DNA of 64,000 bases, from positions 22,677-86,676 of the forward strand of contig CAZCRT010000008.1 in NCBI GenBank assembly GCA_964501185.1, read 5' to 3'. The position numbers were made by a program, and so were the translations under genes. The notes under the pieces were generated by a model. The model made no database searches. It saw only the letters and a list, made by a program, of their open reading frames with translations, and had not been told where the DNA came from. The stretch's first letter is position 1. The number at the start of each line of letters is the position of its first letter. This stretch comes from an uncultured Bacteroidia bacterium (GTDB lineage Bacteria; CAIWAD01; BS150m-G50). Positions 34,323-47,879 of the stretch are shown here, piece by piece.

Positions 34323-34682
34323 CTACATCAGGATTATGTATATCAGAACACAGCATACTAAACCACAGAGTGCGTTAAGGCCATCGTCTTTAAAGGCCTT
34401 CGGGGTAGATTCAGCCAACCATTTTTCCATCTCATGAATGGATAGACTGGTCCTCAATCCCGCTTTTGTAACTGCAATATGCTTCGCAGCCAGAAGCGAC
34501 TGACAGGAAGTATGCCCGTCAGAACCAGATTCCACTAACGCCATTGAACCAGCCAGTATGCAGTCATCAGCTGCAGTCTTACCACCATGTGCAGCTGAAA
34601 GGATATCCGTGACCTCCGGGGATCCGGCCTGCATTAAAGCCGGGATGGAAATCATAAGAAAGCATATGAGTACTCTTAACAT
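34323..34682 (-). CDS. Small secreted hypothetical protein (possible CMD/AhpD-like fold)
   Basis: Signal peptide, 119 aa. Translationally coupled (TAATG) to the upstream YidD-like gene. The fold assignment is weak. Confidence 0.3.
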   Translation of the reverse strand: MLRVLICFLMISIPALMQAGSPEVTDILSAAHGGKTAADDCILAGSMALVESGSDGHTSCQSLLAAKHIAVTKAGLRTSLSIHEMEKWLAESTPKAFKDDGLNALCGLVCCVLIYIILM

Positions 34683-35362
34683 TAACCTTCCTCCTCCAGC
34701 ACTGACAGAATATTGAAATAGACATCACTGAGATAGAAAGAAGAGAATATGAAAAATGATAGATAAATCCGGATACCACGGGACTCATAACCCTGCATGA
34801 GCCGATATCCAGAATAGCCTGTAACAAAGAGCATTGAGACTCCATCCCAGAAACGGCCATTGACCATTTTGTTAAACCCCGGCAGCACAAATGATAATGG
34901 AACGGTGAGCCAGGGCAGGTGATCACTTCTGAAATATGATCCCGCCCGGGATGCGTTTACCAGTCTATGGTTCTCAGAGGGATAATAGCTGTTGGCAAAA
35001 GGATGGCAGCGGGATACCCGGTCTGCTCCATACAGAATCCCCGGGAAGATGCCATGCTTCCGGATAGAGTGGATGCCGTATTCGGAACAGCAGGGCTCAA
35101 ATTGACAATTCAGGAGGGGCGTACTGAAGGATATCTTCTGCCATCCCCTGATGGCCAGAATCGCCGGATTCCAACTCTCATTAATGCCCGGACTACTATC
35201 CTCAGTGAGCCATTGACCGGGTTGTGCCATTGTCTCGATCTTCAGCCTATCACCCGTTTTCTTCACAGCGACAGCGTCGGACGAAAAGAGGAACAGAGTA
35301 AACAGAATTGATAGAATATTGACCGGGCGGAGTGTGTTGTGTCTGAAGCGCACTATTCTCAC
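34682..35362 (-). CDS. YidD-domain (membrane protein insertion efficiency factor-like) fusion protein
   Basis: ISFSTPLLNCQFEPCCSEYGIHSIRKHGIFPGILYGADRVSRCHPF matches the YidD core (CRFxPSCSxY...RCHP). N-terminal signal/TM segment and a ~100-aa C-terminal extension with two TM helices. Confidence 0.65.
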   Translation of the reverse strand: MRIVRFRHNTLRPVNILSILFTLFLFSSDAVAVKKTGDRLKIETMAQPGQWLTEDSSPGINESWNPAILAIRGWQKISFSTPLLNCQFEPCCSEYGIHSIRKHGIFPGILYGADRVSRCHPFANSYYPSENHRLVNASRAGSYFRSDHLPWLTVPLSFVLPGFNKMVNGRFWDGVSMLFVTGYSGYRLMQGYESRGIRIYLSFFIFSSFYLSDVYFNILSVLEEEG

Positions 35363-36207
35363 ATCTCTTCTGCGTTCAGGGAAACCGTCTCCACAGGGGG
35401 GATCAGCTTATACATCTCCTCATCGTCGAGGTAGGATTCGATAACAGGGTGGGGCATGTTAGCCAGCTGCTGCAGAATACCACCCAGTTTGTATGTCTCT
35501 GCCAGAATGCTATCGAGCTTCTGGCGGGCGGGATCCTTATCCGCCAGTTTCAGCAACAGCATTTCCGCATTACCGGCGATAGCTGTCAGCGGATTGTTGA
35601 TCTCATGATTCAGGGTTGTCACCATGCGGCTGATGGTCTTGAGTTGTTCCTGCTCCAGCAGTTGAGCCTGCATCTTGCGTAATCGTGCGTAACTGCTCTG
35701 CAACTCCTGATGCGAACGGCGCAGACGCTTAACCAGCTCCAGGTTCCGAATTATAAGTGCCGCCTGGCTTCCCAGCACACTCAACATGTCCAGGTCAAGC
35801 CTGATGAAGGCTTCCGGCTCCCGGTGCCCGAAGTTGAGTACCCCGATCAACTCTTCTTCAATCACCAGCGGGATTGAAACAAAAGAGCGCCAGCTGTCTT
35901 TCTCCTGCTGATGTCGGCGCTGAATATCATTGAGTAGCAGCGGCTGCCGGCGTCGTGCAATCCATCCGGCCAATCCCTCACCCATATCGAAACTGACCGG
36001 CATAATCAGATTGACTTCCCGGCCGATTCTGGCGGCACATTCAAGCTGTCTATCCCCCTCCTTGAAGAGGTAGAGTGTCGCATCCTGCCAGGGAATCACT
36101 TCCCGGGTCAGCTGCAGTAACGCTTCCGGCATAGTTGCAGGATCGTGAGTGGTCTGAATCAACCCACTCAGCTGCGCCAGCATATCCAGTGCTTTCTTAC
36201 CGTTCAT
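35359..36207 (-). CDS. GAF-domain sensor with HisKA phosphoacceptor domain but no HATPase domain
   Basis: GAF-like N-terminus, H-box LNHEINNPLTAI, and the protein ends ~60 aa later. Confidence 0.6.
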   Translation of the reverse strand: MNGKKALDMLAQLSGLIQTTHDPATMPEALLQLTREVIPWQDATLYLFKEGDRQLECAARIGREVNLIMPVSFDMGEGLAGWIARRRQPLLLNDIQRRHQQEKDSWRSFVSIPLVIEEELIGVLNFGHREPEAFIRLDLDMLSVLGSQAALIIRNLELVKRLRRSHQELQSSYARLRKMQAQLLEQEQLKTISRMVTTLNHEINNPLTAIAGNAEMLLLKLADKDPARQKLDSILAETYKLGGILQQLANMPHPVIESYLDDEEMYKLIPPVETVSLNAEEM

Positions 36208-36224
36208 ATGATTATAACCACTTC

Positions 36225-36488
36225 CTACATCCTGCCGTCAACACCACCATCACGCATCGTTCCGATCCGTTTCAACCTGATGGTCGGCCGCAGTTTTTCC
36301 ACCAGCAGGATAATTCTCTCACCAATCTGTAATGTCTCACGGCTGGTAAACGGCAGTGTTACACCAGCCAGAGCAATATCCCAACTGCCATCCTGCCGGT
36401 GTTCTTTTACCAGTGCTGTCAGAATTTGTCCCTGTCGCAACTTACTGCGCAGCTTCTCTAAACCATTCTCACTCGTTTGCAGAGACAA
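36225..36488 (-). CDS. Small hypothetical protein (87 aa) within the flagellar/signalling operon
   Basis: Co-directional and tightly spaced with its neighbours. No recognisable motif. Confidence 0.3.
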   Translation of the reverse strand: MSLQTSENGLEKLRSKLRQGQILTALVKEHRQDGSWDIALAGVTLPFTSRETLQIGERIILLVEKLRPTIRLKRIGTMRDGGVDGRM

Positions 36489-36490
36489 CG

Positions 36491-37768
36491 TCAGCTTTCA
36501 TTTTCCTGAGATTCCTCATCCTCTTTTTCAGACGGGGAATTACTTTCCTGATGGCGCATCTGCAGAATCAGTCGAACTTCATCCTGGCTGAGCCCGAGCG
36601 TGCCGGCGATTTCCGCGGTTCCCTTTTTCTTGTCAGCCAGCCGATAGACTTCCTTGTCACGCTCATAGCCCGGCTTGTCTTCCCCCTTTCCGTCAGCTGG
36701 CCTGTCCTCGTCTGCTGCAGGGGATGATGTTTCATCTCCGGCGGATTTCTTCTTTTCATCCTTTTTTTTGCGGGCCTTCCTGCCTTTGGCCTCTTTGTCC
36801 GGGGTGGCTTCATCTTCTGTATCAGAGTCGGAATCAAAACTGGCGAGGTGCTTTCTTTCGACCATTTTATGGCGTACCAGTAAACCAGCACCAACCAGGA
36901 TCAGTCCAACCAGTCCAGCCAGCAACAGTTTCAGACTCAGTTCCGGTATCCCGCCGGCCCCCTCTGGATTGTCCGTATTTGATTCTGATGCTGATTCCTG
37001 ACTGCTGATGCTGTTGTCATAGCCAGCCAGCATTCTGGCCACCACTACGCCATAGGTTGGTTTAAGCAGTAATGGATCCAGATGAGCGTATGCTTCCTCA
37101 GTGTTTTTACCGGTCAGATAGATAGATCCAAGCCGGAAGTGGAGTGTGTCTGCGTCAGGCCGGGTAACAAGTTCCTTCTCGAGAATGCGACAGGCCGTTT
37201 CCGGGTCTCCTGCCTGCTCCAGAGTGGCAACAATCTCAAGCAGCTGCAGCAGTTCCTCATGACTGAGATCAGGAGCTTCCTCTGCCCTGTCTGTCTGCTC
37301 AGGGGAAGGTGATGATGAATCTTTCCTGACTTCTGTTCTGGCAGGTTCCGGTGGAGTGGCTTCTGCTTCCCTGGTTGCGGGGGCACCACTACTACGGTGC
37401 AGGCAGTCAACTACGAAACGGAATCCGCTTCCACCACCCTGACGAAAAGCGTGAACTTCCAGCACATCGCTGAGGTCCAGGCGGTAGACCAGACGGTCCG
37501 GTGCAACATCATGAAGGTTTATCTGCAGCAGGTGTGGACTCACTGGTTGCTGCAGGTGCTTTGCCAGAAGCTGGATATTACCATGGAGAATTACATCGAT
37601 ATAACCCTGATCCAGGTGGCGTTCAATTTCTACCGGTGTTCTCTCTGTCAGATCAAAAACAATCCGGTAGTAGGTTTCATGTGGTGCATGCCGGATGTCA
37701 AGCAGTTGTGGTACAGCCTGAACGGACTGAACCAGTATCAGCAACCCTATCAATCGTAACAACAGCAT
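36491..37768 (-). CDS. AMIN-domain/TPR-like membrane protein with charged C-terminal tail
   Basis: Signal peptide; AMIN-like YYRIVFDLTERTPV...YIDVIL; a TM helix near residue 290; K/E/D-rich tail with an HTH-like GTAEIAGTLGLSQDEVRLI segment. Confidence 0.45.
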   Translation of the reverse strand: MLLLRLIGLLILVQSVQAVPQLLDIRHAPHETYYRIVFDLTERTPVEIERHLDQGYIDVILHGNIQLLAKHLQQPVSPHLLQINLHDVAPDRLVYRLDLSDVLEVHAFRQGGGSGFRFVVDCLHRSSGAPATREAEATPPEPARTEVRKDSSSPSPEQTDRAEEAPDLSHEELLQLLEIVATLEQAGDPETACRILEKELVTRPDADTLHFRLGSIYLTGKNTEEAYAHLDPLLLKPTYGVVVARMLAGYDNSISSQESASESNTDNPEGAGGIPELSLKLLLAGLVGLILVGAGLLVRHKMVERKHLASFDSDSDTEDEATPDKEAKGRKARKKKDEKKKSAGDETSSPAADEDRPADGKGEDKPGYERDKEVYRLADKKKGTAEIAGTLGLSQDEVRLILQMRHQESNSPSEKEDEESQENES

Positions 37769-37776
37769 GAATAACC

Positions 37777-39024
37777 TCAGTTCTGATCTTCCGGTGGCTT
37801 ATCCTGTTCACCGGTCTCATTCCTGTCAGGACGCAGGTTGAGCATCTTTAAGTCTCCCAGGTAGTTGACCGATTCCAGTGATTCAAGTTGTTCGAATCTT
37901 TGTATCACGTCAGCTATCCGGTCACTGTTTTCCATCAGGGTCTGCAATCGCTCTCTGTCCTTCTGGCGCATCGGGGAATCTTTATCATTCAGCATGAGAT
38001 AGAGCTGACTCTTGATGGTGGTCAGAGGATTATTGATCTCATGACTGACCGCTATGGCAGCTTCACTCAGCAGTTGAAATTTCTCTGCGAAGCGCGCTTT
38101 TTCCTGCAACTGCCGTGTCTCGGTCATATCTCGCACCAGCAGCATTGATCTGTTCTGCATCTCTACCTGCAGCGGAGTGACAGTGATATCAGTTTCCAGC
38201 TTCTGTTGCTGGTCATTAATCAGGGTTGCTTCCAGTCGCCCTGTTTTGCGTGAAGCGAGTAGTTGCTGCAGCTGTTTCTGCTGCTTTCTCTCAATCAGCA
38301 GATCGATAAAATCGCGATGCAGAAACTTGTCTTTACTCCAACCCATTCTCACGATTGCAGGATTGGCAAATTGAATTGATCCCTCTTCGTCCAGCAGGAT
38401 TACCGCCTCCTGAGCTTGAGTGATCAGAGTATCCAGAAAGGCGCTGGTTCGTTCAATTTTCTGGTAGAGCAGGGAATTCTGCAAGGCCACAGCTGCCTGG
38501 TTGACCGTGTAGAAAATTGTATCCAGGCTATGCTGTGTGATTGTATCACGAACAGCAGAAGTCGTGCAGATGAAAAATCCGATCCCCTGACCACCGACAG
38601 CCAGTGGTACAACCAGGAAAGAAAGCTGTTGACCGGAATCATCGCTCTCTTCCTGTATCACATCAATATCCGGAACCAGTATTGCGCGCTGTTCACCCTG
38701 TATCCAATCGATGATACCGTCACTGATCATACCGGGAACAGCACTTGTGAGCGCTTTTTCCGGGCTTCCAAAGCAGACCGGCTTATCGCTTTCGGTCATC
38801 AGATACACTGCACATGAATCAAAATCTACCAGTCGGGCGACAACTCCGAAGAGTGCTTCTACCACATAATCCGGTTCCACGGCGGAGCGTATTGTCTCCG
38901 ATAGCTGCTGGATCTCCTTGAACTCACCCAGTGACTCACGAAGTGCATCCCGGGTATGAGCAGCTGTAATCAGTTCCTGACGCAGCTGTTCAAGATCGGA
39001 CCTGTCACTCTTCCGCTTGTCCAT
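37777..39024 (-). CDS. GAF/PAS sensor with HisKA domain but no HATPase domain
   Basis: GAF and PAS-like segments, H-box SHEINNPLTTI, terminates shortly after. Start is moved to MDKRK to avoid overlap with the upstream gene. Confidence 0.6.
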   Translation of the reverse strand: MDKRKSDRSDLEQLRQELITAAHTRDALRESLGEFKEIQQLSETIRSAVEPDYVVEALFGVVARLVDFDSCAVYLMTESDKPVCFGSPEKALTSAVPGMISDGIIDWIQGEQRAILVPDIDVIQEESDDSGQQLSFLVVPLAVGGQGIGFFICTTSAVRDTITQHSLDTIFYTVNQAAVALQNSLLYQKIERTSAFLDTLITQAQEAVILLDEEGSIQFANPAIVRMGWSKDKFLHRDFIDLLIERKQQKQLQQLLASRKTGRLEATLINDQQQKLETDITVTPLQVEMQNRSMLLVRDMTETRQLQEKARFAEKFQLLSEAAIAVSHEINNPLTTIKSQLYLMLNDKDSPMRQKDRERLQTLMENSDRIADVIQRFEQLESLESVNYLGDLKMLNLRPDRNETGEQDKPPEDQN

Positions 39025-39037
39025 GGATCTGCCTGTT

Positions 39038-40000
39038 CTAGCTGTTGCCGGTACGGTTCTCGCTGCCCCAGGCGTAATAATCAGACTCCGGGACATCTCT
39101 ACCCTGAATTATACTGCGGAACGCATTAGCACGTTCGAACTCCTCCCTGAAGAGATCAGTATAATGATCAATATCGACTTCACCCTGTGGGGTGCGATGC
39201 AGTTGCAGGAGGTTTGCCACCGGTTCTGCCACTCCCCAGATTTTCCCCTCCTGCGCATAGTGCGGATGCAGGCGCCGTGTAAGAAAATCAGCGAAATAGG
39301 TTATTGCAGTAAGCTGAGACAGTTCCTCTTCCAGCAGTGGCTGATGATGATAACGAATGGCATCGACTATCTGCTCCGGCAGATTCCAGCGCCGGGTCAG
39401 CAATCCTCCGATTTCTGCGTGGCACAATCCCAGAATTTCCTTCTCCGCTTCCCAGAGCAGGTAGTCCTTCTTCTCCTGTAATCGCTGGATCTCAGTGAAC
39501 TCCTGTGGCAGGTAGCGTACAATGACCAGCCGTCCGATATCGTGCAGCAATCCGGTCACAAATGCTTCACCGACTACACGATAGTTACCTTCCCTGCTTA
39601 TCATCCTGGCGGCAATTGCAGTACCGATAGAGTGTTCCCAGAATCCGGTCATATCAAATCCGGTGACTTCATGGCTGATATTGAATCGATCCACCAGCGA
39701 AGAGCTGACACCGAGATCTTTGACCGTGTTGAAGCCGAGTACAACTATTGCCAGGTTGATAGTGCCGATACGGCGTGGAAAGCCATAGAAAGCAGAGTTA
39801 GCCAGCTTCAGCATCCGGGCAGTCAGGCCGGGATCGGTTGCGATCAGACGGGAGAGTGTCGCCGCGTTTGTCTTCGGATTATCCACCAGTTCGACAATTT
39901 TGGAGACAACCATCGGTAGTGACGGTAGATCGAGAATACCATCGGCAATTGCTCTCACTCTGTCAGCTTTGGTTAACGGGGCAACTTGGGAAGGGGGCAT
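39038..40000 (-). CDS. HDOD-domain signalling protein
   Basis: LPSLPMVVSKIVELV...ATDPGLTARMLKLANSAFYG and a downstream HD-like HDIG...HH region. Confidence 0.8.
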   Translation of the reverse strand: MPPSQVAPLTKADRVRAIADGILDLPSLPMVVSKIVELVDNPKTNAATLSRLIATDPGLTARMLKLANSAFYGFPRRIGTINLAIVVLGFNTVKDLGVSSSLVDRFNISHEVTGFDMTGFWEHSIGTAIAARMISREGNYRVVGEAFVTGLLHDIGRLVIVRYLPQEFTEIQRLQEKKDYLLWEAEKEILGLCHAEIGGLLTRRWNLPEQIVDAIRYHHQPLLEEELSQLTAITYFADFLTRRLHPHYAQEGKIWGVAEPVANLLQLHRTPQGEVDIDHYTDLFREEFERANAFRSIIQGRDVPESDYYAWGSENRTGNS

Positions 40001-40002
40001 AT

Positions 40003-40365
40003 TCAGGCTTTCACATCAATTTCATGGTCTGGTCCGGGCCGGCTTTTCTCCGGTTCAGTTTCAGTTGTCTCTTCCCGGTCTGACTCTTTTTTATGTTGCT
40101 TACGAATGAACTTCTTCTGCTTCTCACTGTCGGCTTTGGCCCGGTAGTCTTCTTCCGCTTCCTGGGCTTTTCGCAACCGCGCTTTCGCTTTCTCTTCATC
40201 TGCGGCAGCATTAGCGACCTGGTGCTGCAGAGCCTGTTGACGCATTGCTTCCTGAAGACGCTCGATCAGTTTTGTCTTGGAGAAGTTATCCTGCAGGTCG
40301 ATAGAGCGTATCATTGATTCACTACTCTTTTCAGCAACGATATCAACAGCTCCCGCTGCTGACAC
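40003..40365 (-). CDS. Highly charged coiled-coil hypothetical protein downstream of fliA
   Basis: 120 aa, K/E-rich. Confidence 0.35.
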   Translation of the reverse strand: MSAAGAVDIVAEKSSESMIRSIDLQDNFSKTKLIERLQEAMRQQALQHQVANAAADEEKAKARLRKAQEAEEDYRAKADSEKQKKFIRKQHKKESDREETTETEPEKSRPGPDHEIDVKA

Positions 40366-40380
40366 GTCGGTGAATTTGTA

Positions 40381-41142
40381 TCACACTGAGATCAGGCTGC
40401 GAATTTTATTCTTCAGGTTAATGATAATCTTGGTATGAATCTGCGAAACACGGGATTCACTGATGTCCAGCACCTGGCCGATTTCCTTAAGTGTCAATTC
40501 CTCGTAATAGTAAAGGGCCATTACCAGTTTTTCCTGTTCCGGCAGCGAATTGATGAGCTTGACCATCAGGATCTTGATCTCCTTGCGTTCCATGATATCA
40601 AGCGGACTGTCATTGTGCTGATTCTCGACAACATCGTAAAGGCTTGTAGTCTGTCCTTCGTCAGAACCCATTGGATGATCGAAGGAGAGCAATGAGGTGG
40701 CGGACACCTCGTCCAGCAATTTATGATAATCAGAAAGAGTGAGTTCCAGCTTGACAGCGAGTTCCTCGTCAGTAGGTACGCGGTTAAGTTCCTCTTCCAG
40801 AGCAACCATCGCCTTACTCACCATTCGTTCCTTGGCTCTGATTGAACGGGGTACCCAGTCATAGTCACGCAGCCCATCAAGAATTGCACCACGAATACGT
40901 GGCACAGCGTAGGTTTCGAACTTGAAGCCGAGGGCAGGGTCAAAGTGATCAACCGAGTTTATCAGACCCATTGTTCCTGCGCCAACCAGATCGTCAAGGA
41001 CAACAGAGTTGGGTAATGATACTTTCATGCGGCTGGCTACAATTTTAACCAACGGCAGGTAATTGACCAGCAGCTGCTCCTTGAGTGCCGGATCCCGGTT
41101 GGTCTGAAACTCAGCCCAGACGGTTTTCATATCGTCAGACAT
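40381..41142 (-). CDS. fliA: Flagellar sigma-28 factor (FliA/WhiG family)
   Basis: Sigma-70 region 2 (DLVGAGTMGLINSVDHFDP..YAVPRIRGAI) and region 4 HTH (LTLKEIGQVLDISESRVSQIH). Sits downstream of flhF/flhG. Confidence 0.9.
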   Translation of the reverse strand: MSDDMKTVWAEFQTNRDPALKEQLLVNYLPLVKIVASRMKVSLPNSVVLDDLVGAGTMGLINSVDHFDPALGFKFETYAVPRIRGAILDGLRDYDWVPRSIRAKERMVSKAMVALEEELNRVPTDEELAVKLELTLSDYHKLLDEVSATSLLSFDHPMGSDEGQTTSLYDVVENQHNDSPLDIMERKEIKILMVKLINSLPEQEKLVMALYYYEELTLKEIGQVLDISESRVSQIHTKIIINLKNKIRSLISV

Positions 41143-41145
41143 GAT

Positions 41146-41457
41146 TTATTCCTTTTCTGCTTCAGAGGATTCAGATGATTCACTTGCCGCCTGCGGGCTA
41201 TGCGCCGCCTGTGGTGGCATGCCAACAGGTGTTGGTACTTTTCTCCTCTGTTCCAACTGCCAGTAATTATAAGTAACCAGCCCCAGTAAAACCAGAATTG
41301 AATAAGTAGCCCAGACTATCAGGGCACGACTCAGAATGGTCCAGAGGGAGAAATCAAACCAGGCGCCCAGAACTATGGTCACCAGCAGGATTATCTGCCC
41401 GAGCTGTTGCCATAACTGTTTGTTGTTGTCCTGATCACTCTTGTGTTGAACACTCAT
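41146..41457 (-). CDS. Small membrane protein (2 TM)
   Basis: 103 aa with two hydrophobic helices, between flhG-like and fliA. Confidence 0.4.
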   Translation of the reverse strand: MSVQHKSDQDNNKQLWQQLGQIILLVTIVLGAWFDFSLWTILSRALIVWATYSILVLLGLVTYNYWQLEQRRKVPTPVGMPPQAAHSPQAASESSESSEAEKE

Positions 41458-41464
41458 AGTATTC

Positions 41465-42169
41465 TCAATTATTTATATCCATGATATCAGATTTCCTCTG
41501 ACTGGAGTAGTGATATTGCCAGCTTATCAATGGTAGTCTGGAGGACCGCAGGAATACCGCTGCTTCCCTGAGTACTTCGACAAAAGCATCTGCATTCTCT
41601 GCCGGGATAGATTTCCCCTCAGCATCAGTATGCAGGCCTGACAACATTCCCAGGCAGGGTGGTGATACGCCAAACCACTGTCGAGTCAGATTGGTGAACA
41701 CGTCCAGTGGTGTTTCCTTGTTTTCAGGATCAGTTACATCTGCTTCTGTCCGGTTCATTAACAGGTAGAGTGGGCGTTCCAGATAATGATGCAGGTTTCT
41801 ACTGAAAAAACCAAAACTGCGCAGTAATTCTCTACTCTCATCAGGCAACACAAGTATGAAATCGTCTATCAGTGTATCACAACCATCAATAGAATCGAGC
41901 AGGATGAAATCATATCTCTGTGATAACCTGCGCCATTCCGCTTTTCGTTCCCGGTAAATCCTGTTGAATTCAGCGCTGTTCAACCTGCTGGGTCTGGCTG
42001 ATGTCATCACAGCTTCTTCCTGTGGTGAATCGCTGACCAGCAGTACTTTTTCACCAACTATCCTCAATGATACAGCCAGCACCTGAGCAATAAGAGATAT
42101 CCTGCTGTTACTGCTCTCAGCATGCAGAAGGATTACTCTGGGTCCACTGTTTTGAGTACTGTGATACAT
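41465..42169 (-). CDS. FlhG/MinD-family protein with degenerate Walker A (predicted non-ATPase)
   Basis: In the FlhG position. RVILLHAESSNSRISLIAQVLAVSLRIVGEKVLLV aligns to RVIAVTSGKGGVGKTT...NLA.ALA..GKRVLLL, with GKGGVGKT replaced by AESSNSRI. A Walker-B-like YDFILLDS is retained. Confidence 0.6.
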   Translation of the reverse strand: MYHSTQNSGPRVILLHAESSNSRISLIAQVLAVSLRIVGEKVLLVSDSPQEEAVMTSARPSRLNSAEFNRIYRERKAEWRRLSQRYDFILLDSIDGCDTLIDDFILVLPDESRELLRSFGFFSRNLHHYLERPLYLLMNRTEADVTDPENKETPLDVFTNLTRQWFGVSPPCLGMLSGLHTDAEGKSIPAENADAFVEVLREAAVFLRSSRLPLISWQYHYSSQRKSDIMDINN

Positions 42170-43284
42170 CAGTCGTCCTTTACCGGGAATCCATTTCCAT
42201 CAAGCAGCCAGGAAGCTATCAGAGATGGCCGCAAACTCAGCATATCCTCCGGGATTCGCTGGCCATTACCCAGGAAACTGAATACCGGCTTAATATCACA
42301 GGCGAGATTCAGGACATTGCCCAGGGTTCCAGTTTCATCAAGTTTGGTAAGAAGTATTCTATTGAAATTTATCTGACGATATTCTCTTACCATCCGGTTC
42401 AGGTCGGAGTACTTTGTGTTCAGTGGCAATACCAGATGGGTTTCCGAAGGCGCCGCCAGCTCCAGCATCTTCTCAACATCACGCAGCTGTTTCCCCGCAC
42501 GCCAGGAAGCCCCCGGCGTATCTATCAGTATAACCTCACAGTGCTGCAGTTCGCGCAGGGCGGGCTTGATTTCCTTTTCACGATACACCAGCCTGAGATC
42601 AGCTTTGACGATCTCTGCAAACACCTGCAGTTGTTGCGCAGCTGCCAGTTTCTTTGTGTCAAGACTGAGGATTCCCAGACGACGATTCCCAAAGAAGGAC
42701 CGATTTGCAGCCAGCTTTATGAGACTGGCGGTTTTACCTGCCCCGGTCGGGCCGATAAATGCCAGCTTCAGTGCCGTTCCATCAGTGTTGGAAGGTATGC
42801 CTGATGCGCGGAAACGCCGGGCAATCCAACGTGCGGCCCTTTCCTGCATGAGTTTGTGAGAGCGCAGTTCTCTGGGTGTAGCGCTCATCTGCAGGTCCTG
42901 CAAAAGCTCCTGTATCACGTTACTGTTTACTTCCATCCGGTGCAGATGGTTTGCCAGGTTGGAAAGTGTCGGCCAGGGCGATTTACCTTCCGGACGCCCC
43001 ATCTGTTGTTGCAGTTCCTGAATAGACCGGGCCAGCTGCTGCATTTCCCCCTGGAGTGCAGCCGGAGGAGCTATTCCGGCAGCCCCTGAAGAACCGGGAG
43101 GTGTAGAGGGGTGGATACTGTCAGCAGATTGTCCGACAACTACTTCATAACTCCAGCCATATTCCGGACCCGCAGGATGGTTGCGCCGGCCTGATTCAAC
43201 GATAACAACATCATCGCCGTTTTCCCGCTTTATCTTGCTCATGATATCACGGTAGTTAGTGCCGGTGTAGGATTTCGTTTCCAT
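42169..43284 (-). CDS. flhF: Flagellar biosynthesis GTPase FlhF
   Basis: SRP-type GTPase motifs GPTGAGKT and DTPG, basic N-domain, sits between flhA and flhG-like. Confidence 0.85.
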   Translation of the reverse strand: METKSYTGTNYRDIMSKIKRENGDDVVIVESGRRNHPAGPEYGWSYEVVVGQSADSIHPSTPPGSSGAAGIAPPAALQGEMQQLARSIQELQQQMGRPEGKSPWPTLSNLANHLHRMEVNSNVIQELLQDLQMSATPRELRSHKLMQERAARWIARRFRASGIPSNTDGTALKLAFIGPTGAGKTASLIKLAANRSFFGNRRLGILSLDTKKLAAAQQLQVFAEIVKADLRLVYREKEIKPALRELQHCEVILIDTPGASWRAGKQLRDVEKMLELAAPSETHLVLPLNTKYSDLNRMVREYRQINFNRILLTKLDETGTLGNVLNLACDIKPVFSFLGNGQRIPEDMLSLRPSLIASWLLDGNGFPVKDD

Positions 43285-43371
43285 TGTTGATTCCTCTATG
43301 CTGTATCACATGATCGTGTGGCTGTACTTCGGGATTTACGACCTTAAATTCATGTATAGTCTGTTCGACGA

Positions 43372-45504
43372 TCAGGCTTCACTGCCGGCTACGATCGCTT
43401 CCTTCTCTCTATCTTCCTGCCCTGCTTTCAGATTGCGGTGTGAAATCACTCCACAGGATTCTACTTCCACGCTGGGGATGAGTTCGCTGTACGAAACCAG
43501 ACTGAGATCAGGCAGCGAACTCTCGAGCAGTTTACGGAGGTATGGCCTGATGGTCGGTGCTGTCAGAAGCACGCCCCTGCGCCCCTGGGTTGACATCTCT
43601 TCAGAGAGATCCCGGATCTGGCGGATAAGAGCCGCAAAAACTTCCGGCGTAAGGCTCAAAGCGCGTCCCTGGGCAGTCTGCTCAAGTTCCCGGCTGAACA
43701 TTTCTTCCAGTTCCGGGTCGAGTGTCATACAGTAGATACGCCCATCTTCATTCTGGTATATCCTGGTGATAGTCTGGTTCAACGAGAAACGGGCATACTC
43801 GTTCAGAATCTCCACATCCTTGGTTGAAGGAGCGTAGTCTGCCAGTGTCTCCAGAATCGTCGTCAGATCCCGGATGGGGATACCCTCCTTCAACAGACGC
43901 TGGAGGACCTTATGTATCACACCCAGGCTGAGCAGATTGGGATAGAGCTCATCGACCAGTGCCGGGTTATCCTTTTTGATATTTTCAATCAGGTTCATCG
44001 CATCCTGGCGGCCGAGTATACGCCACGAGCTTTTTTGTATCACGTCAACCAGATGTGTCGCCAGTACTGCCGGTGCTTCGATTACGGCATAGCCCAGCAG
44101 TTCAGCCCTCTCCCTGATTTCCTCTCGTATCCAGGTTGCCGGCATGCCAAATGTCGGTTCCGTGGTCTTGAAACCGTCAATCTCCTCGTCAGCTTCCCCG
44201 GCGTTCAGCGCCAGATGATAGCCAACCTTGATTTCACCCTGTGCTACTTCAATACCACGGATTTTGATCGTGTACTCTTCCGGCTTCAGCTGAATATTAT
44301 CGCGAATGCGTATTGGCGGAATAATGATACCGAGATCCAGTGCCTGCTGTTTCCGGATAAGGGTAATACGGTTCAGCAGGTCACCATTCTGTTCCACATC
44401 GACCAGCGGAATGAGGCCGTAACCGATTTCAATTTCCATGGGATCGACATAGAGGAAGTCCTCGATATTTTCCTCTGCGGGCTCTTCCTGTGCTTCAGCT
44501 TCCGGTTCCTGTTGTTCACTCTTGCGTCCACTGCGCAGGGCCAGGGCGACGCTGCCGATTGCTATGGAAAGGATCATAAACGGAAGCGTGGGCAAACCGG
44601 GTACCAGCGCGAAAAACATGAGTACAAACGCTACAATGATGAGTGGCCGGATACGACTGAAGAGCTGAGCGGTTACATCATGCCCAAAGTTATTGCGGGC
44701 ACCGGCACGTGTTACAATTACACCGGCAGCCGTAGAGATGATCAGGGCAGGGATCTGGTTAACGAGACCGTCACCAACTGTAAGCAGAGTGTAGTTGGCA
44801 ATGGCTTCCGGGAAAGTCATACCCAGCTGAATCATACCGATAGCGAAACCACCAAGGATATTGATAGCGGTAATAATCAGACTGGCAATGGCATCACCCC
44901 GGACAAACTTGGAGGCACCATCCATTGCCCCATAGAAATCAGCCTCCTTGCTGATTTTCTCACGCCGCTGCCTGGCTTCCTGTTCGTCAATAACACCATT
45001 GTTGAGATCGGCGTCGATCGCCATCTGTTTACCCGGCATAGCGTCGAGTGTAAACCGGGCCGCTACCTCTGCAACACGCCCGGCACCCTTGGTAATGACG
45101 ATGAAGTTGATCAGTACCAGGATCAGGAAGACGATGAAACCGACGATGTAGTTGCCCTTGACCACGAAGCCACCGAAGGCGGAAATCACCTGCCCGGCGT
45201 AGCCATCACCCAGGATCAGCCGGGTAGAGGCGACATTAAGTGCCAATCGGAAAAGCGTGATCAGAAGCAGCAGACCGGGAAAGATGGAGAATTGGAGCGG
45301 CTCTGTATTGTAGATCGCAACCAGCAGGATGGTCAAGCCGATGGCAATATTGAGCGCCAGCAGCACATCCAGAAACGCTGCCGGCAGCGGAATGATCATC
45401 ATCACCAGGATACCGACAATACCCAGCGCTATCAGCACATCACTGCGTCGTGTCAGTGCCGAAAGGGTGTTATTACGCAGTGTGATACGATCGTCCATAC
45501 TCAT
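43372..45504 (-). CDS. flhA: Flagellar biosynthesis protein FlhA
   Basis: 710 aa; 8-TM N-domain with FlhA signatures (FPGLLL, TRLILGDG) and a large cytoplasmic domain. Confidence 0.95.
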   Translation of the reverse strand: MSMDDRITLRNNTLSALTRRSDVLIALGIVGILVMMIIPLPAAFLDVLLALNIAIGLTILLVAIYNTEPLQFSIFPGLLLLITLFRLALNVASTRLILGDGYAGQVISAFGGFVVKGNYIVGFIVFLILVLINFIVITKGAGRVAEVAARFTLDAMPGKQMAIDADLNNGVIDEQEARQRREKISKEADFYGAMDGASKFVRGDAIASLIITAINILGGFAIGMIQLGMTFPEAIANYTLLTVGDGLVNQIPALIISTAAGVIVTRAGARNNFGHDVTAQLFSRIRPLIIVAFVLMFFALVPGLPTLPFMILSIAIGSVALALRSGRKSEQQEPEAEAQEEPAEENIEDFLYVDPMEIEIGYGLIPLVDVEQNGDLLNRITLIRKQQALDLGIIIPPIRIRDNIQLKPEEYTIKIRGIEVAQGEIKVGYHLALNAGEADEEIDGFKTTEPTFGMPATWIREEIRERAELLGYAVIEAPAVLATHLVDVIQKSSWRILGRQDAMNLIENIKKDNPALVDELYPNLLSLGVIHKVLQRLLKEGIPIRDLTTILETLADYAPSTKDVEILNEYARFSLNQTITRIYQNEDGRIYCMTLDPELEEMFSRELEQTAQGRALSLTPEVFAALIRQIRDLSEEMSTQGRRGVLLTAPTIRPYLRKLLESSLPDLSLVSYSELIPSVEVESCGVISHRNLKAGQEDREKEAIVAGSEA

Positions 45505-46574
45505 GCTGCTTCACTTTTGTTCTGATAGACCAGTGCCAGCACTTCGGCAATGGCCTGATAGAAATCAACCGGTACTTCCACACCTACATCCACAACGTGA
45601 TACATTGCGCGGGTGAGGGGCGGATTTTCTATTACCGGAATATCGTTGTGCCCGGCAATTTCCCGGATACGCTCTGCGACCTTGCGGACCCCCTTGGCTA
45701 CGACACGGGGAGCGCGCATATTTTCCTGTTCATATTTGAGTGCGATAGCGTAATGTGTCGGGTTGGTGATCACAACATCCGCGTCCGGGACGTCATTCAG
45801 CATCCGCCGGAACGCCATCTCAAACTGCAGTGAACGGACATGTGATTTCAACAGCGGGTCACCCTCGGTCTGCTTACGCTCATCCTTGACTTCCTGTTTA
45901 GTCATCTTCAGTTTGCGCGAGTGTTCCCATTTCTGAAACCACCAGTCGAATGCTGCGATCGCGCTCAGGAAAACCGCAGTCCAAATGATCAGGTTGCGTG
46001 TACTTTCCGCAACTGCCATCAGCATGCCGGCGGTAGTCGAGTCACCCAGCCGGGAAAAATCTCCCAACTCGTTCTTTACTACCAGCCACGCGACAAATCC
46101 CACCACAGTGATCTTGACGAAGTTCTTCACCAGTTCGTTGAGAGAGCGGGTGGAGAAAATGTTCTTCAATCCCTTTACCGGGTTCATTTTATTGAAATCA
46201 GGTTTGATCGATTCGGCTGAAGCGAGGAAGCCAACCTGTGACAGATTGGCTGCCAGGCCGATAACCAGTACCAGCAGCATGAAGGGCAGCACCGCTCTGG
46301 CAGTAATACCCACACTGAAGCTGCCAATCTCCTGAACCTGATCGATTTCAACAGGCCAGCTGGATGCATGACTGTAGATGTAGCGGAATCCACCGGTGAT
46401 GGTCGCCATTATCTGACCACCCAGTATCATCAACGCCAGCAGGCCACCCAGAATCACGGCAGCGGAGTTAATCTCCATGCTCTTGGCGACGTTACCCTTC
46501 TTGCGTGCGTCATCGCGCCGCTTCTGGGTTGCCGGTTCTGTTTTGTCCTGGAAGGATGTCTGCTCATCAGCCAT
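45501..46574 (-). CDS. flhB: Flagellar biosynthesis protein FlhB
   Basis: 4-TM N-domain and NPTH autocleavage motif (VVITNPTHYAIAL). Confidence 0.95.
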   Translation of the reverse strand: MADEQTSFQDKTEPATQKRRDDARKKGNVAKSMEINSAAVILGGLLALMILGGQIMATITGGFRYIYSHASSWPVEIDQVQEIGSFSVGITARAVLPFMLLVLVIGLAANLSQVGFLASAESIKPDFNKMNPVKGLKNIFSTRSLNELVKNFVKITVVGFVAWLVVKNELGDFSRLGDSTTAGMLMAVAESTRNLIIWTAVFLSAIAAFDWWFQKWEHSRKLKMTKQEVKDERKQTEGDPLLKSHVRSLQFEMAFRRMLNDVPDADVVITNPTHYAIALKYEQENMRAPRVVAKGVRKVAERIREIAGHNDIPVIENPPLTRAMYHVVDVGVEVPVDFYQAIAEVLALVYQNKSEAA

Positions 46575-46826
46575 AGGAAAAAGCTGCCCTGTTTCTATTG
46601 TTCACAGGTCAGAAGGCAAAATCCATTCCATTTATGGCCATTGTGGTGAGAGGAGGGGGAGGTTTTCTCAACTAACCTCGTTCATCGTTGTAAGGGATGG
46701 AAAAACAATGGGTAACGGTTGATGCAGGTCGAAAGCTGGTTAGCTGCAGAGCATGGGAGATACCGAATAGAGTTCGGAAGTTCGCTACTCGAACGGTTGC
46801 GAAGCTGCTAAAATTGCCGGGAGCAG

Positions 46827-47879
46827 TTAGACTATCCGCAGCCCTTTACCATCGTAACCGGTAATCTCACCGATCAGGCAGGCGTTCTTGACACCATGTT
46901 CCAACAGGCTTTGCAGCAGTCGGTCACTCTCATTGCCAGCGACGGCAATCAGCAGGCCACCGGAAGTCTGTGGATCGTAGAGCAGTTGCTGATCTTTCCA
47001 GCTGATTTCCCGGTTGAATTCCAGTTCGGAAGCTACCTTTTCGTAGTTGGGCTTGTTGGCACCGGTACCGACTTTGTCGTAATACAACTCCTGCGCCTGT
47101 GTGAAAAATGGCAGCGACTCTAAGTTGATCCGCATGGTAACACCACTGGTGGCAGCCATCTTGCCGGCATGTCCGGCCAGGCCGAAACCGGTCACATCAG
47201 TACAGGCGTGTACCGTGAAATCTGTTAACACTTCTGCAGCGACGCGGTTGAGTGTAATCATCGACTCAATCACAGGTTCCAGATTCTCCGGCAGGGTTTT
47301 ACCGGCATTGTTACCGTTGATGATGACACCGGTACCGAGTGGTTTGGTGAGGATAAGCCTGTCTCCCGGTTGCGCTGTTGAGTTGCGCAGGATCCGGTCA
47401 GGATGTACCAGGCCATTGACCGACAGGCCGTATTTCGGCTCCGGATCATCGGTAGTATGTCCACCGATCAGTATTGCCCCCGCTTCACTGATCTTGCTCA
47501 AACCGCCGGCCAGCACCTGCTGAAAAACAGTCACATCCTGGGTACCGGGCAGCCCCAGCAGATTGAGAGCAGTAATCGGCCGCGCACCCATGGCATAAAT
47601 GTCACTCAATGCATTAGCAGCTGCTATCTGGCCGAATGTGTAGGGATCGTCAACCGGAGGGGTGATCCAGTCACCGGTAACTACCAGCGCCTGTTCATCC
47701 GATAGCCTGTAAACACCGGAATCATCACCGGTATCGATACCTACCAGGACATCTGAATCCTGTTGAGTATGCACATCAGCCAGTATTTTATCCAACCCGA
47801 CCGGGTCAATCTTGGCCGCTCAACCGCACTTGTGTGCCAGTGATGCCAGTCCCGGTTGATCTGTGAGGTGTAGTTTCAT
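46827..47879 (-). CDS. selD: Selenide, water dikinase (selenophosphate synthetase), Sec-containing, in-frame UGA at 47820-47822
   Basis: The track's ORF (TTG start at 47795) lacks the SelD N-terminus. Extending upstream in frame gives MKLHLTDQPGLASLAHKCG-U-AAKIDPVGLDKIL, which aligns to E. coli SHGAGC(17)GCK(20)ISPKVLETIL with UGA at the Cys17 position. The rest is a full-length SelD (AIR synthase-like). Confidence 0.85.

Follow-up and report, generated by a model that had tools for sequence, protein, structure and literature searches.

What can a sensor protein that carries a phospho-acceptor histidine but no ATP-binding domain do in a flagellar gene cluster? The question is raised by positions 34323–46574 of the window (the whole 64,000-nt stretch of DNA analysed), where 14 densely spaced minus-strand genes, according to the ORF coordinates, form a cluster of ~12 kb that runs from flagellar export genes into a block encoding two such sensors. 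From 46574 down, the genes are as follows.

45501–46574, minus strand: flhB, flagellar type III export gate and substrate-specificity switch, 357 aa (Pfam Bac_export_2, E 2e-127, full length)
43372–45504, minus strand: flhA, export gate, 710 aa (Pfam FHIPEP, E 3e-269), with a 4-nt overlap with flhB
42169–43284, minus strand: flhF, SRP-type GTPase, 371 aa (Pfam SRP54, E 5e-26)
41465–42169, minus strand: 234-aa protein at the FlhG position
41146–41457, minus strand: small membrane protein, 103 aa, with a hydrophobic core in its translation
40381–41142, minus strand: fliA, sigma-28, 253 aa (Pfam Sigma70_r2, r3 and r4)
40003–40314, minus strand: small charged protein directly after fliA, 103 aa from the probable start M18 (longest ORF to 40365)
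39038–40000, minus strand: stand-alone HDOD protein, 320 aa (Pfam HDOD, E 9e-65)
37777–39024, minus strand: GAF-PAS-HisKA protein without a catalytic domain, 415 aa from the probable start M25 (longest ORF to 39096, 439 aa; Pfam GAF_3, PAS and HisKA)
36491–37768, minus strand: AMIN-like/TPR membrane protein, 425 aa (weak Pfam matches only)
36225–36488, minus strand: 87-aa protein, modelled as an N-terminal helix and a small OB-like beta-barrel (AF2, pLDDT 79)
35359–36207, minus strand: GAF-HisKA protein without a catalytic domain, 282 aa, here called GH282 (Pfam GAF_2, E 2e-19; HisKA, E 5e-10)
34682–35362, minus strand: YidD-domain fusion, 226 aa, with hydrophobic N- and C-terminal extensions and a 4-nt overlap with the GH282 gene
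34323–34682, minus strand: small protein, last of the block, 119 aa, with a signal-like segment at the N-terminus and a hydrophobic one at the C-terminus

The flagellar genes and the module after fliA

A sequence-only reading of this DNA had given the gene order and coordinates, and all 14 minus-strand ORFs lie where it placed them; a Pfam domain search upheld its domain calls, including FlhB, FlhA, FlhF, FliA, HDOD, GAF/PAS/HisKA and YidD, and che and mot genes are indeed missing from the cluster. Several metagenomes, with 19 contigs between them, contain the same locus, which excludes an assembly artefact. Intergenic spacing, measured on the longest ORFs, ranges from −59 to +87 nt, and the maximum, between flhA and flhF, is the sole sizeable intergenic space. 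Promoter and terminator scans of the cluster gave signals no higher than shuffled controls, and the 14 genes may be read as a single transcript. Two start codons are to be shifted on the basis of orthologue alignment and of gene calls made independently on identical contigs: M25 (39024) is the most likely start of the GAF-PAS-HisKA gene and leaves a 13-nt gap after the HDOD gene in place of the 59-nt overlap of the longest ORF, and M18 (40314) is the most likely start of the charged-protein gene.

Here the flagellar export and regulatory genes form an intact cluster of a type seen across FCB-group phyla, with the order flhB-flhA-flhF-(decayed flhG)-small membrane protein-fliA. Upstream of flhB, where fliPQR are not present, a 250-nt gap is followed by a ThiL-like AIRS gene. 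The FlhF translation shows the GPTGAGKT, DTPG and TKLD motifs. The 234-aa protein next to it matches nothing in Pfam or NCBIfam and lacks the KGGxGK P-loop; against an HMM of ~50 FCB FlhG proteins, it scores only 14.9 bits, in a collinear match spanning the helix after the P-loop and "YDFILLD", and it is probably a degenerate FlhG remnant. The same position holds a true ParA-type FlhG in the related locus L003 and no gene in L005 or L001. The 103-aa membrane protein has no family match in Pfam or NCBIfam, and homologues occupy the equivalent position in L004, L005, and L010.

In its distal half, the cluster carries signalling genes that are met again downstream of fliA in FCB-group phyla; this module comprises the charged protein, the HDOD protein, the TPR/DUF6115-like protein, the OB-like protein, and the sensors. 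The charged protein belongs to a family of 109 homologue clusters, all of 91–129 aa, that share a conserved helix at the N-terminus (MxRPVELxDxLSKT) and the motif H-I-D-I-K-A at the C-terminus, and its gene directly follows fliA in at least 13 clustered loci as well as in L004 and L005. Sequence gives no support to the earlier suggestion of an anti-sigma-28 (FlgM-like) factor, and only the location right behind fliA is conserved; none of 15 family members matches Pfam FlgM, and none of the 109 clusters matches any Pfam domain. HDOD genes also follow fliA in Delongbacteria, Gemmatimonadales-type, Glassbacteria, Cloacimonadota, and some Latescibacteria loci.

The 425-aa protein consists of a signal peptide, an AMIN-like N-terminus, TPR, one transmembrane segment, a charged linker, and a C-terminal DUF6115-like helix-turn-helix-like motif (DUF6115, E 1e-3); the matches behind its former description as an AMIN/TPR protein are present, but fall below threshold (TPR_14, E 0.003; AMIN-like, E 0.095). 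Marinimicrobia (~300 aa), Cloacimonadota (430–608 aa; DUF6115, E 0.006), and Zixibacteria (~135 aa) have, at this position, counterparts that share its N- and C-terminal ("...LSYDEAxL") features. The 87-aa protein has no Pfam match, and the top PDB matches of its model, the IF1 and PAN-N OB folds, are not significant (E ~0.03); its gene is co-conserved with the GAF-HisKA-only gene in 41 of ~78 related loci (42 with the window's own copy), and in Cloacimonadota it is fused to a longer protein. Residues 67–125 of the YidD fusion match Pfam YidD (E 3e-16) and TIGR00278 (E 1e-12). The 119-aa protein has no family match in Pfam or NCBIfam, and its gene converges with a PLD/LTD gene ending at 34263. 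Neither of these two genes has a counterpart after GH282 in the two closest related loci, L004 and L005, and the YidD fusion is therefore probably a lineage-specific addition.

A fliA-linked family of sensors without a catalytic domain

The lack of a HATPase domain, first noticed from the sequence alone in both HisKA proteins, is borne out. Pfam detects no HATPase_c domain in either at E ≤ 1; ~80 residues follow the H-box His in GH282 and ~85 in the 439/415-aa protein, and the next gene lies within ~10 nt. With filtering disabled, an HMM of the CA domain derived from related full kinases was applied to the six-frame translation of the whole window; it found nothing in 34–47 kb and matched, as a positive control, only the kinase at 61400–64000 (E 3e-36). 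As neither protein contains an ATP-binding domain, the claim that they cannot autophosphorylate holds in cis.

Genome-context comparison shows that the 282-aa sensor is not, as had been supposed, a peculiarity of one operon; GH282 is a member of an unnamed protein family encoded beside fliA in at least 59 species-level genomes of many FCB-group phyla. All 82 orthologues have just 64–95 residues beyond the phospho-acceptor His, so the short form is no local truncation, and the 13 closest database clusters are all HisKA-only proteins of 255–294 aa. The AF2 model of GH282 (pLDDT 80) lacks a CA domain and consists of a GAF domain, a long helix, a DHp hairpin, and a short tail. The H-box reads N-H-E-I-N-N-P-L with an invariant phospho-acceptor His; N200, H201, I203, N204, P206, L207, and Y259 are 100% conserved across the 82 orthologues, the phosphatase-linked Asn at H+4 (N205) is kept in 81 (99%), and the Glu at H+1 (E202) is 96% conserved, with Lys in its place in both Calditrichota orthologues and Gly in L024. 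Residues of the GAF domain are strongly conserved too. In 59 of 67 informative loci, the GH282 gene is preceded by a same-strand fliA gene (median distance 2.8 kb), and flhA is also found in 54 of the GH282 loci; the fliA-linked loci come from Delongbacteria, Latescibacterota, Zixibacteria, Marinimicrobia, Cloacimonadota, Calditrichota, Ignavibacteria, and Gemmatimonadales MAGs, and in Marinimicrobia-type loci the GH282 gene sits between fliA and flgF-flgG. The family lost its ATP-binding CA domain long ago, and its architecture is ancient and selected rather than a product of decay.

The 415-aa protein (H-box SHEINNPLT) is a paralogue of GH282, 23% identical in the GAF domain and 31% in the DHp and tail, with the common tail Y-L-x-D-x-x-M-x-x-L. 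Its positional counterparts are full GAF-HisKA-HATPase kinases in Latescibacteria (L016 and L024) and are likewise CA-less in L004, L005, L007, and L010. The CA domain of the sensor adjoining GH282 is strong in Marinimicrobia and Latescibacteria (140–200 bits), weak in Calditrichota (40–76 bits), vestigial in Zixibacteria and Ignavibacteria (8–26 bits), and gone in Delongbacteria, L007, L010, and L073. These scores indicate that the neighbouring sensor has lost its catalytic domain repeatedly, and the decay series suggests that kinase activity is dispensable in the post-fliA module.

Phosphatase, relay or scaffold

Phosphatases, phospho-relay partners, and kinase decoys were the roles first suggested for the HisKA-only proteins, and these three remain the live options. 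We tentatively favour, with a probability of about 45%, the reading in which GH282, under control of its GAF domain and without ATP, acts on CheY-like regulators as a phosphatase or phosphate sink. In this mechanism, GH282 would form a DHp dimer whose GAF domain senses a ligand and, via the long connecting helix, controls a reaction that needs no ATP and has a phosphorylated receiver protein as its substrate; the likeliest reaction would be dephosphorylation of, or phosphate draining from, a partner that is presumably a CheY-like single-domain or flagellar response regulator, so that motility control would be coupled to fliA-operon expression. In HisKA kinases, the acidic residue at H+1 is needed only for kinase activity, and the Thr/Asn at H+4 only for phosphatase activity (PMC3510030). 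Retention of the H+4 Asn with replacement of the H+1 Glu in Calditrichota and L024 is as expected under selection for phosphatase, not kinase, function. Because the second sensor of this lineage also lacks a CA domain, the module holds no kinase, and phosphate must come from a kinase encoded elsewhere. The Zixibacteria and Ignavibacteria loci contain no intact kinase either, the CA domain of their second HK-like protein being vestigial; the GH282 gene there is flanked by genes for a receiver protein of 146 aa and for three canonical receivers with a single domain. Against a phosphatase, the window's own cluster contains no receiver gene, and the GH282 gene has an intact kinase gene right beside it in ~30 loci, which favours trans-phosphorylation in those lineages.

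Candidate partners had been proposed at 59–64 kb, in what were described as two REC-HDOD response regulators and a hybrid kinase. One regulator (59–61 kb) is indeed REC-HDOD, but the other is REC-HD_5, with an HD domain of another Pfam family. The kinase at 61–64 kb has three PAS domains and HATPase_c and ends after its CA domain; no receiver domain is visible in it, its N-terminus lying beyond the window edge. The three genes form a unit of their own 20 kb away, and nothing ties them to the flagellar cluster.

The main rival, which we consider rather unlikely, is a split kinase or phosphorelay, in which GH282 and the 415-aa paralogue would be phospho-acceptor DHp modules, phosphorylated in trans by a CA-bearing kinase or by back-transfer from a receiver, that pass the phosphate to a response regulator, serving either as histidine phosphotransferases under GAF control, in the manner of Spo0B or ChpT, or as the DHp part of a kinase split over two polypeptides. 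The invariant His agrees with such a relay, as does the kinase-linked H+1 Glu; at 96% conservation, the latter fits a phosphorylated His equally well. The adjacent PAS- or GAF-HisKA-HATPase kinase (at a 13-nt gap in L003, for example) and the relay-typical arrangement of several flanking receivers in Zixibacteria and Ignavibacteria point the same way, and domain A of EnvZ is reportedly phosphorylated in trans by domain B. However, the adjacent kinase is lineage-specific: it is missing from Gemmatimonadales-type, Glassbacteria, Cloacimonadota, and most Latescibacteria loci, decayed or lost in Calditrichota, Zixibacteria/Ignavibacteria, and Delongbacteria, and absent as a CA domain in any frame of the window's cluster. 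Both Calditrichota orthologues, with the H+4 Asn but no acidic residue at H+1, also argue against a relay, and the Marinimicrobia kinase has a different H-box (HELSQPL), so that DHp heterodimerisation is not obviously favoured.

Less probable still is that the CA-less DHp proteins act by binding alone, as decoys or scaffolds that heterodimerise with or cap a full kinase to block its autophosphorylation, sequester a response regulator, or tether the HDOD, TPR, and OB-like proteins at the flagellar base. Inhibition of GacS autophosphorylation is one of three mechanisms of RetS, the GH282 gene is co-conserved with non-enzymatic partners (the OB-like protein and the TPR/DUF6115-like membrane protein), and the invariant tail Tyr259, having no known catalytic role, suggests a docking contact. 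Nevertheless, a pure binding module should tolerate changes of the His and catalytic Asn, whereas the whole H-box is essentially invariant across phyla, and the conserved GAF residues point to a ligand-regulated activity. Finally, although kinases that look incomplete in a draft metagenome assembly are often just fragments and the final two genes of the block lack conserved counterparts in related loci, the notion of truncated pseudogenes, frameshifted kinases, or mis-assemblies in a block unrelated to flagella is effectively refuted by the single architecture of the 82 orthologues, the identical locus on 19 independent contigs, the CA-HMM search, which found no CA-coding remnant before the closely following genes, and the fliA synteny maintained across phyla.

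For the phosphatase or phosphate-sink reading, one precedent is Myxococcus xanthus RedE, an HK-like protein that cannot autophosphorylate; one regulator hands its phosphate to RedE, and another, of the single-domain type, is dephosphorylated by it (PMC2755868). The uptake of phosphate by RedE from RedD also speaks for a relay, and the RedE phosphatase required ADP, and therefore a nucleotide-binding domain, which GH282 does not have; this difference counts against the comparison. The isolated DHp domain of EnvZ reportedly has phosphatase activity.

The HisKA proteins of the flagellar cluster

The flagellar cluster comprises 14 co-directional minus-strand genes, a layout proposed by the sequence-only reading and confirmed by ORF listing and translation. 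Two of its products, GH282 (a GAF-HisKA protein) and a GAF-PAS-HisKA sensor of 415 aa, carry a phospho-acceptor domain and no catalytic HATPase_c (CA) domain. The features concerned are the following.

46574–34323 (−): flagellar cluster, from flhB to a 119-aa gene
41465–42169 (−): 234-aa protein in the FlhG position
40003–40314 (−): charged protein directly after fliA
37777–39024 (−): GAF-PAS-HisKA sensor (the 415-aa protein)
35359–36207 (−): GH282, 282 aa, phospho-acceptor His201
34682–35362 (−): YidD fusion
43912–45525 (+): antisense ORF inside flhA
59042–64000 (−): three-gene unit encoding a kinase and two regulators

The claim that both HisKA proteins lack an ATPase domain was upheld. Pfam detected HisKA in the 282-aa protein (E 5e-10) and in the GAF-PAS-HisKA sensor (E 2e-8; 415 aa, longest ORF 439 aa), and no HATPase_c in either at E ≤ 1. 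In each protein, approximately 80–85 residues follow the H-box histidine, and the next gene starts within about 10 nt. A CA HMM derived from related full kinases, run with filters off over six frames of the window, found no CA domain at 34–47 kb; its sole match in the window was an unrelated PAS kinase at 61400–64000 (E 3e-36), which serves as a positive control. A hidden HATPase_c domain that a sensitive profile would reveal, the finding named by the sequence-only reading as contrary to its claim, is rejected, since both Pfam at E ≤ 1 and the family-specific six-frame HMM were negative at 34–47 kb. The AF2 model of GH282 (pLDDT 80) consists of a GAF domain, a long helix (136–220) bearing His201, and a return helix (226–249), followed by a short low-confidence hairpin and a disordered tail, with no CA-type domain after the helices, and Foldseek matched this model to GAF domains only. 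GH282 thus cannot bind ATP via a CA domain and, lacking that domain, falls outside the definition of a histidine kinase; autophosphorylation by ATP is predicted to be absent in both HisKA-only proteins.

The earlier assignments of FlhB, FlhA, FlhF, FliA, the HDOD protein, both HisKA proteins, and the YidD fusion are supported by Pfam and NCBIfam, while the presumed FlhG matches no family and the 425-aa membrane protein yields only sub-threshold Pfam matches (TPR, AMIN-like, and DUF6115). FlhB (Bac_export_2, E 2e-127) and FlhA (FHIPEP, E 3e-269) match over their full lengths, FlhF is an SRP-type GTPase (SRP54, E 5e-26) with GPTGAGKT, DTPG, and TKLD in its translation, and FliA (sigma-28) contains regions 2, 3, and 4 (Sigma70_r2, r3, and r4). 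Orthologue alignment and independent gene calls on identical contigs moved the start of the GAF-PAS-HisKA gene to 39024 and that of the charged-protein gene to 40314, giving proteins of 415 and 103 aa. The 537-aa antisense ORF within flhA can almost certainly be discounted as a spurious shadow ORF.

The 234-aa protein in the FlhG position matches nothing in Pfam or NCBIfam and lacks both the deviant Walker A motif of MinD/ParA proteins and an N-terminal activator-type motif; its P-loop is replaced, and an FCB FlhG profile gives it only 14.9 bits. We read it, from these sequence features, as a degenerate FlhG remnant. Among the related loci compared (L003:5285–6124, L005, and L001), which come from other genomes carrying GH282 orthologues, the FlhG gene is absent from L005 and from Gemmatimonadales-type loci. 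As FlhG is decayed or missing while the GTPase motifs of FlhF are kept, it appears that in several of these lineages FlhF operates with no working FlhG partner. The genes fliP, fliQ, and fliR precede flhB in L003 and do not do so here (46575–47795), which implies that this genome divides its export-gate genes between two or more loci; the gene found upstream of flhB instead, 250 nt away on the same strand, encodes a ThiL-like AIRS-domain protein.

Gene spacing is consistent with a single operon, in which the widest intergenic space is the 87 nt between flhA and flhF and the other gaps are small. At 33.8–47.2 kb, sigma-70-like promoters and intrinsic terminators did not exceed shuffled controls. 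A sigma-54 consensus scan gave chance-level results, and a sigma-28 consensus was enriched window-wide, with no convincing site at gene starts in the cluster. The flhA-flhF-fleN-fliA operon of Pseudomonas putida is reported to have an internal promoter before flhF (PMC6424431), and by analogy the 87-nt gap could have the same role here.

The suggestion that the charged protein is a FlgM-like factor finds no support in sequence: none of 15 members of its family matches FlgM (PF04316) at E ≤ 0.1, and none of its 109 homologue clusters contains any Pfam domain. Its conserved position after fliA is the one feature that suggests a FliA-related role.

At the distal end, the YidD protein (PF01809, E 3e-16; TIGR00278, 47.6 bits versus a cut-off of 40) is a 226-aa fusion in which hydrophobic extensions lie on both sides of the domain, and its gene is translationally coupled to that of GH282 through a 4-nt overlap. 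YidD is typically a small stand-alone protein in an rnpA-yidD-yidC neighbourhood; the fusion, at the end of a flagellar cluster, neither stands alone nor lies in that neighbourhood, so its size and context are unusual, and it is not conserved in L004 or L005. In the two nearest of the related loci, neither the fusion nor the 119-aa gene was found downstream of GH282; both are probably outside the conserved module.

The rest of the window contains housekeeping and secreted-protease genes and no other flagellar or chemotaxis genes. The kinase and regulators at 59–64 kb, put forward earlier as candidate partners, do exist, but they are one REC-HDOD and one REC-HD_5 protein rather than two REC-HDOD proteins, and the kinase has no visible receiver. 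They form an overlapping three-gene unit encoding a PASx3-HisKA-like-HATPase kinase, then the REC-HDOD protein (407 aa), and then the REC-HD_5 protein (384 aa). The kinase, whose N-terminus lies off the window, ends after its CA domain and has an H-box (AHEINTP) unlike that of GH282; as a separate unit with a different H-box and nothing that ties it to the cluster, it was rejected as a source of partners. With the cluster's own HDOD protein, this region encodes two HDOD proteins and one HD_5 protein. A 220-aa PilZ-domain protein (9140–9802 (+), E 2e-15), whose gene has pyrF on one side and a phosphoribosyltransferase gene on the other, may be a c-di-GMP effector, and related flagellar clusters carry PilZ genes. 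A 1515-aa gingipain-like peptidase C25 (15903–20450 (+)), with a weak match to the sorting domain of type IX secretion substrates (Por_Secre_tail, 26.8 bits, just below the cut-off of 27), is encoded near two M14 carboxypeptidases and an S8 subtilase; this match would fit an FCB-group source for the window. The longest ORF of a zinc-ribbon/rhomboid gene (start 55653) overlaps the 3' end of a tmRNA gene (55351–55706 (+), tag ANDNYALAA, Rfam 188 bits), so that its true start is probably further downstream.

Conservation of GH282 and the module after fliA

GH282 is conserved and is not a one-off of a single operon. Among GTDB species representatives, at least 519 relatives were confirmed by tblastn, of which the best 80 were examined; these best 80 are labelled Delongbacteria, Latescibacterota, Gemmatimonadales, Glassbacteria, Zixibacteria, Neomarinimicrobiota, Cloacimonadota, Calditrichota (including a Caldithrix abyssi MAG), Ignavibacteria, and Fidelibacterota, the nearest among them being from Delongbacteria (74% and 68% identity). 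A Delongbacteria-like organism is accordingly the most likely source of the window. All of the 13 nearest database clusters are HisKA-only proteins of 255–294 aa, and the remoter matches are full kinases; a separate search of the representatives with a family profile had its top ranks filled by giant multi-GAF kinases and gives no estimate of family size.

Across 82 orthologues, the H-box NHEINNPL is essentially invariant: Asn200, His201, Ile203, Asn204, Pro206, and Leu207 are 100% conserved, as is Tyr259 in the tail, while Asn205 (H+4) reaches 99% and Glu202 (H+1) 96%. The phospho-acceptor motif is therefore under strong purifying selection, and the tail after the histidine is uniformly short (64–95 residues, median 75). 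Variant H-boxes occur in both Calditrichota orthologues (NHKINNPL; L027 and L082) and in a Latescibacteria orthologue (NHGINNPL; L024), all three of which keep the H+4 Asn; in L027 and L082 the adjoining PAS kinase also has an eroded catalytic domain.

GH282 is also genetically linked to fliA across phyla. Upstream sequence of 6 kb or more is available for 67 loci; 59 of these have fliA upstream in the same orientation, at a median distance of 2.8 kb, and 54 of the 59 carry flhA as well. No named equivalent of GH282 was found in PDB or NCBIfam, which returned generic GAF domains and full kinases only, and no curated description of a CA-less GAF-HisKA protein of flagellar clusters was found among Pfam architecture names, NCBIfam, or PDB. 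Literature searches likewise returned no prior account of CA-less HisKA or HDOD genes in flagellar clusters and none of flagellar regulation in Marinimicrobia or Ignavibacteria.

Clustering of neighbouring ORFs revealed a variable yet recognisable module after fliA across the related loci.

Table. Recurrent members of the module after fliA
Small charged protein: directly after fliA; family of 109 clusters, all 91–129 aa
HDOD protein: here PF08668, E 9e-65, profile positions 1–196 of 196
Membrane protein ending in a DUF6115-like LSYDEAxL sequence: 425 aa here, ~300 in Marinimicrobia, 430–608 in Cloacimonadota, ~135 in Zixibacteria
87-aa protein: 41 related loci; fused to a longer protein in Cloacimonadota
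GH282: GAF-HisKA protein

The 103-, 120-, 87-, and 119-aa proteins of the cluster have no Pfam or NCBIfam family match. The AF2 model of the 87-aa protein shows a helix and an OB-like barrel, for which the best Foldseek match in PDB (E 0.03) is not significant. SwrB of B. subtilis is a membrane protein encoded just after sigD, and a link between it and the DUF6115-like C-terminus of the 425-aa protein would be a positional analogy only. The charged protein ends in H-(I/L)-D-(I/L/V)-K-A, and many members of the s87 family, to which the 87-aa protein belongs (L003, L029, L031, L033, L048, and others), end in the similar T-(D/N)-I-(I/L)-(V/I); these C-termini may represent a shared docking or sorting motif.

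The sensor encoded next to GH282 differs between lineages in the state of its CA domain.

Table. The sensor neighbouring GH282, with CA-HMM scores
Marinimicrobia: complete PAS-HisKA-HATPase kinase; 140–200 bits
Latescibacteria (two loci, L016 and L024): complete GAF-HisKA-HATPase kinase; 140–200 bits
Calditrichota: sensor with eroded CA domain; 40–76 bits
Zixibacteria/Ignavibacteria: (PAS-)GAF-HisKA protein of 567–607 aa with vestigial CA domain; 8–26 bits
Delongbacteria, L007, L010, and L073: sensor without CA domain; no match

In the one neighbour of the Zixibacteria/Ignavibacteria type that was tested (L023), Pfam found no HATPase_c. The 415-aa protein is closer to the full kinases of Latescibacteria than to GH282, yet it shares the tail motif of GH282 and is its paralogue, from which we infer that the CA domain was lost at least twice within the module.

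In Zixibacteria and Ignavibacteria, GH282 has four receiver proteins, PilZ proteins, and an MCP-like fragment encoded around it, and an intact kinase is lacking. The CA-vestigial sensor lies directly downstream of GH282 at ~10.4–12.6 kb in locus coordinates (L020, L021, L023, L028, L051, L055, L056, L060, L061, L069, and L070) and precedes genes for three canonical single-domain receivers and an MCP-signalling-like fragment of 119–128 aa, while one to three PilZ proteins and a DUF2225 protein are encoded upstream. In Latescibacteria (L022:8038–9956; also L035, L037, and L032), a ~540-aa protein with a weak C-terminal FliK match (Flg_hook, E 6e-4) and a 100-aa stand-alone protein resembling the FlhB C-terminal domain (E 3e-19) are encoded just upstream of GH282, which there adjoins hook-length and export-switch components.

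Possible functions of GH282

GH282 is proposed to act as a phosphatase or phosphate sink: a putative DHp dimer, gated by its GAF domain, would remove or drain phosphate from a CheY-like or flagellar response regulator without the use of ATP, a reading to which we assign a probability of about 0.45. Mutagenesis of HisKA proteins has shown that the acidic residue at H+1 is needed for kinase activity only, and that the Thr or Asn at H+4 is needed for phosphatase activity only (PMC3510030). The phosphatase model is favoured because the H+4 Asn is near-invariant, the H+1 residue is lost in some members, the kinase encoded next to GH282 has decayed more than once, and in Zixibacteria and Ignavibacteria GH282 is flanked by single-domain receivers. 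The 96% conservation of the H+1 Glu, together with the intact kinase that adjoins GH282 in ~30 loci, would instead fit a relay or split kinase phosphorylated in trans, which is the main rival and a somewhat less likely reading. Improbable by comparison is a purely steric decoy or scaffold, a role that would accommodate the co-conserved non-enzymatic partners and the invariant Tyr259 but poorly explains the invariant H-box. The locus was found identical on 19 contigs from several metagenomes, and a truncation or artefact is effectively excluded.

A broader and more doubtful proposal is that GAF-DHp proteins form a new FCB-wide class of flagellar regulators, that is, former kinases that permanently lost the ATPase domain and would now, under ligand control and without ATP, dephosphorylate CheY-like or flagellar response regulators or act as sinks for their phosphate, in concert with the OB-like 87-aa protein and the TPR/DUF6115-like membrane protein. 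If so, they would take the place of phosphatases of the CheZ/CheX/CheC type or serve as a checkpoint in flagellar assembly.

Two-component "kinases" that lack a catalytic domain tend to be written off as fragments. GH282 is intact across numerous phyla, its active-site motif does not vary, and its position in the flagellar fliA operon is fixed; such conservation offers a natural case of a transmitter domain under selection for a non-kinase role. It suggests that flagellar control has an uncharacterised layer in the FCB group (Marinimicrobia, Latescibacteria, Zixibacteria, Cloacimonadota, Calditrichota, Ignavibacteria, and others), whose motility regulation is, to our knowledge, essentially unstudied. 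The graded CA loss in the neighbouring sensor provides a comparative series from kinases to phosphatases, relays, or pseudo-enzymes. The interest of the system rests on the breadth of conservation, this clean series, and the absence of a flagellar-regulation study in these phyla; the candidate partner regulator is predicted as a class only. The GH282 gene is present in loci labelled Caldithrix abyssi (L027) and Ignavibacterium sp. (L051), and as both genera have cultured members, the question of its function may be open to experiment.

Comparison with known systems

The closest functional precedents for GH282 are RedE, Spo0B/ChpT, RetS, and the isolated DHp domain of EnvZ. In genomic setting, it recalls the cytoplasmic transmitters FlgS/FlgR, FleS/FleR, and FlrB/FlrC of polar flagellates, which are encoded with flagellar genes and whose regulation is tied to assembly of the export apparatus and MS ring. 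The flhF-flhG-fliA neighbourhood is common to both; however, the kinases of these checkpoint systems are complete and act on NtrC-type sigma-54 activators, whereas this cluster encodes neither such an activator nor an intact kinase.

Spo0B of Bacillus and ChpT of Caulobacter are DHp-like helical-hairpin dimers with an acceptor histidine that do not autophosphorylate with ATP and act between receivers, and ChpT-CtrA controls flagellar genes in alphaproteobacteria. GH282 shares the helical hairpin with its acceptor histidine, according to the predicted helices of its AF2 model. In contrast, Spo0B and ChpT retain an alpha/beta domain of pseudo-CA type at the C-terminus and lack a sensor domain, whereas GH282 has an N-terminal GAF domain and its family ends 64–95 residues past the histidine. 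Pfam found no SPOB_a or HPTransfase match for the window proteins, and in both NCBIfam and Pfam GH282 falls among the ordinary HisKA (AtoS/NtrB-like) transmitters; without a pseudo-CA domain and as a plain HisKA protein, GH282 is not a member of the Spo0B/ChpT type.

RedE, of the M. xanthus RedCDEF system, is a histidine kinase-like protein that does not autophosphorylate and whose conserved histidine receives its phosphate from a response regulator; RedE also dephosphorylates a single-domain receiver, a reaction that needs ADP (PMC2755868). GH282 resembles RedE as a kinase-like transmitter predicted not to autophosphorylate; RedE is encoded in an operon with its signalling partners, as GH282 may be. 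However, RedE keeps an HATPase_c-type domain, has no GAF sensor, and governs development rather than flagella, while GH282 has no nucleotide-binding domain at all.

RetS of Pseudomonas aeruginosa modulates GacS by three mechanisms, namely phosphate siphoning, dephosphorylation, and blocking (PMC5992135), and is likewise a sensor transmitter that does not signal by its own autophosphorylation. It differs in being a large membrane hybrid kinase with CA and receiver domains and no flagellar-cluster context, whereas GH282 is a small cytoplasmic GAF-DHp protein.

EnvZ, NtrB, HK853, and CrdS belong to the same DHp sequence family and follow the same H-box logic, with the histidine, an acidic H+1, and a Thr or Asn at H+4 (PMC3510030). 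In contrast to these kinases, every GH282 family member examined lacks the CA/HATPase_c domain. As in GAF- and phytochrome-linked kinases, a continuous helix joins the GAF domain of GH282 to its DHp region, and for a DHp region that stands without its catalytic partner, the isolated EnvZ domain provides a functional precedent.
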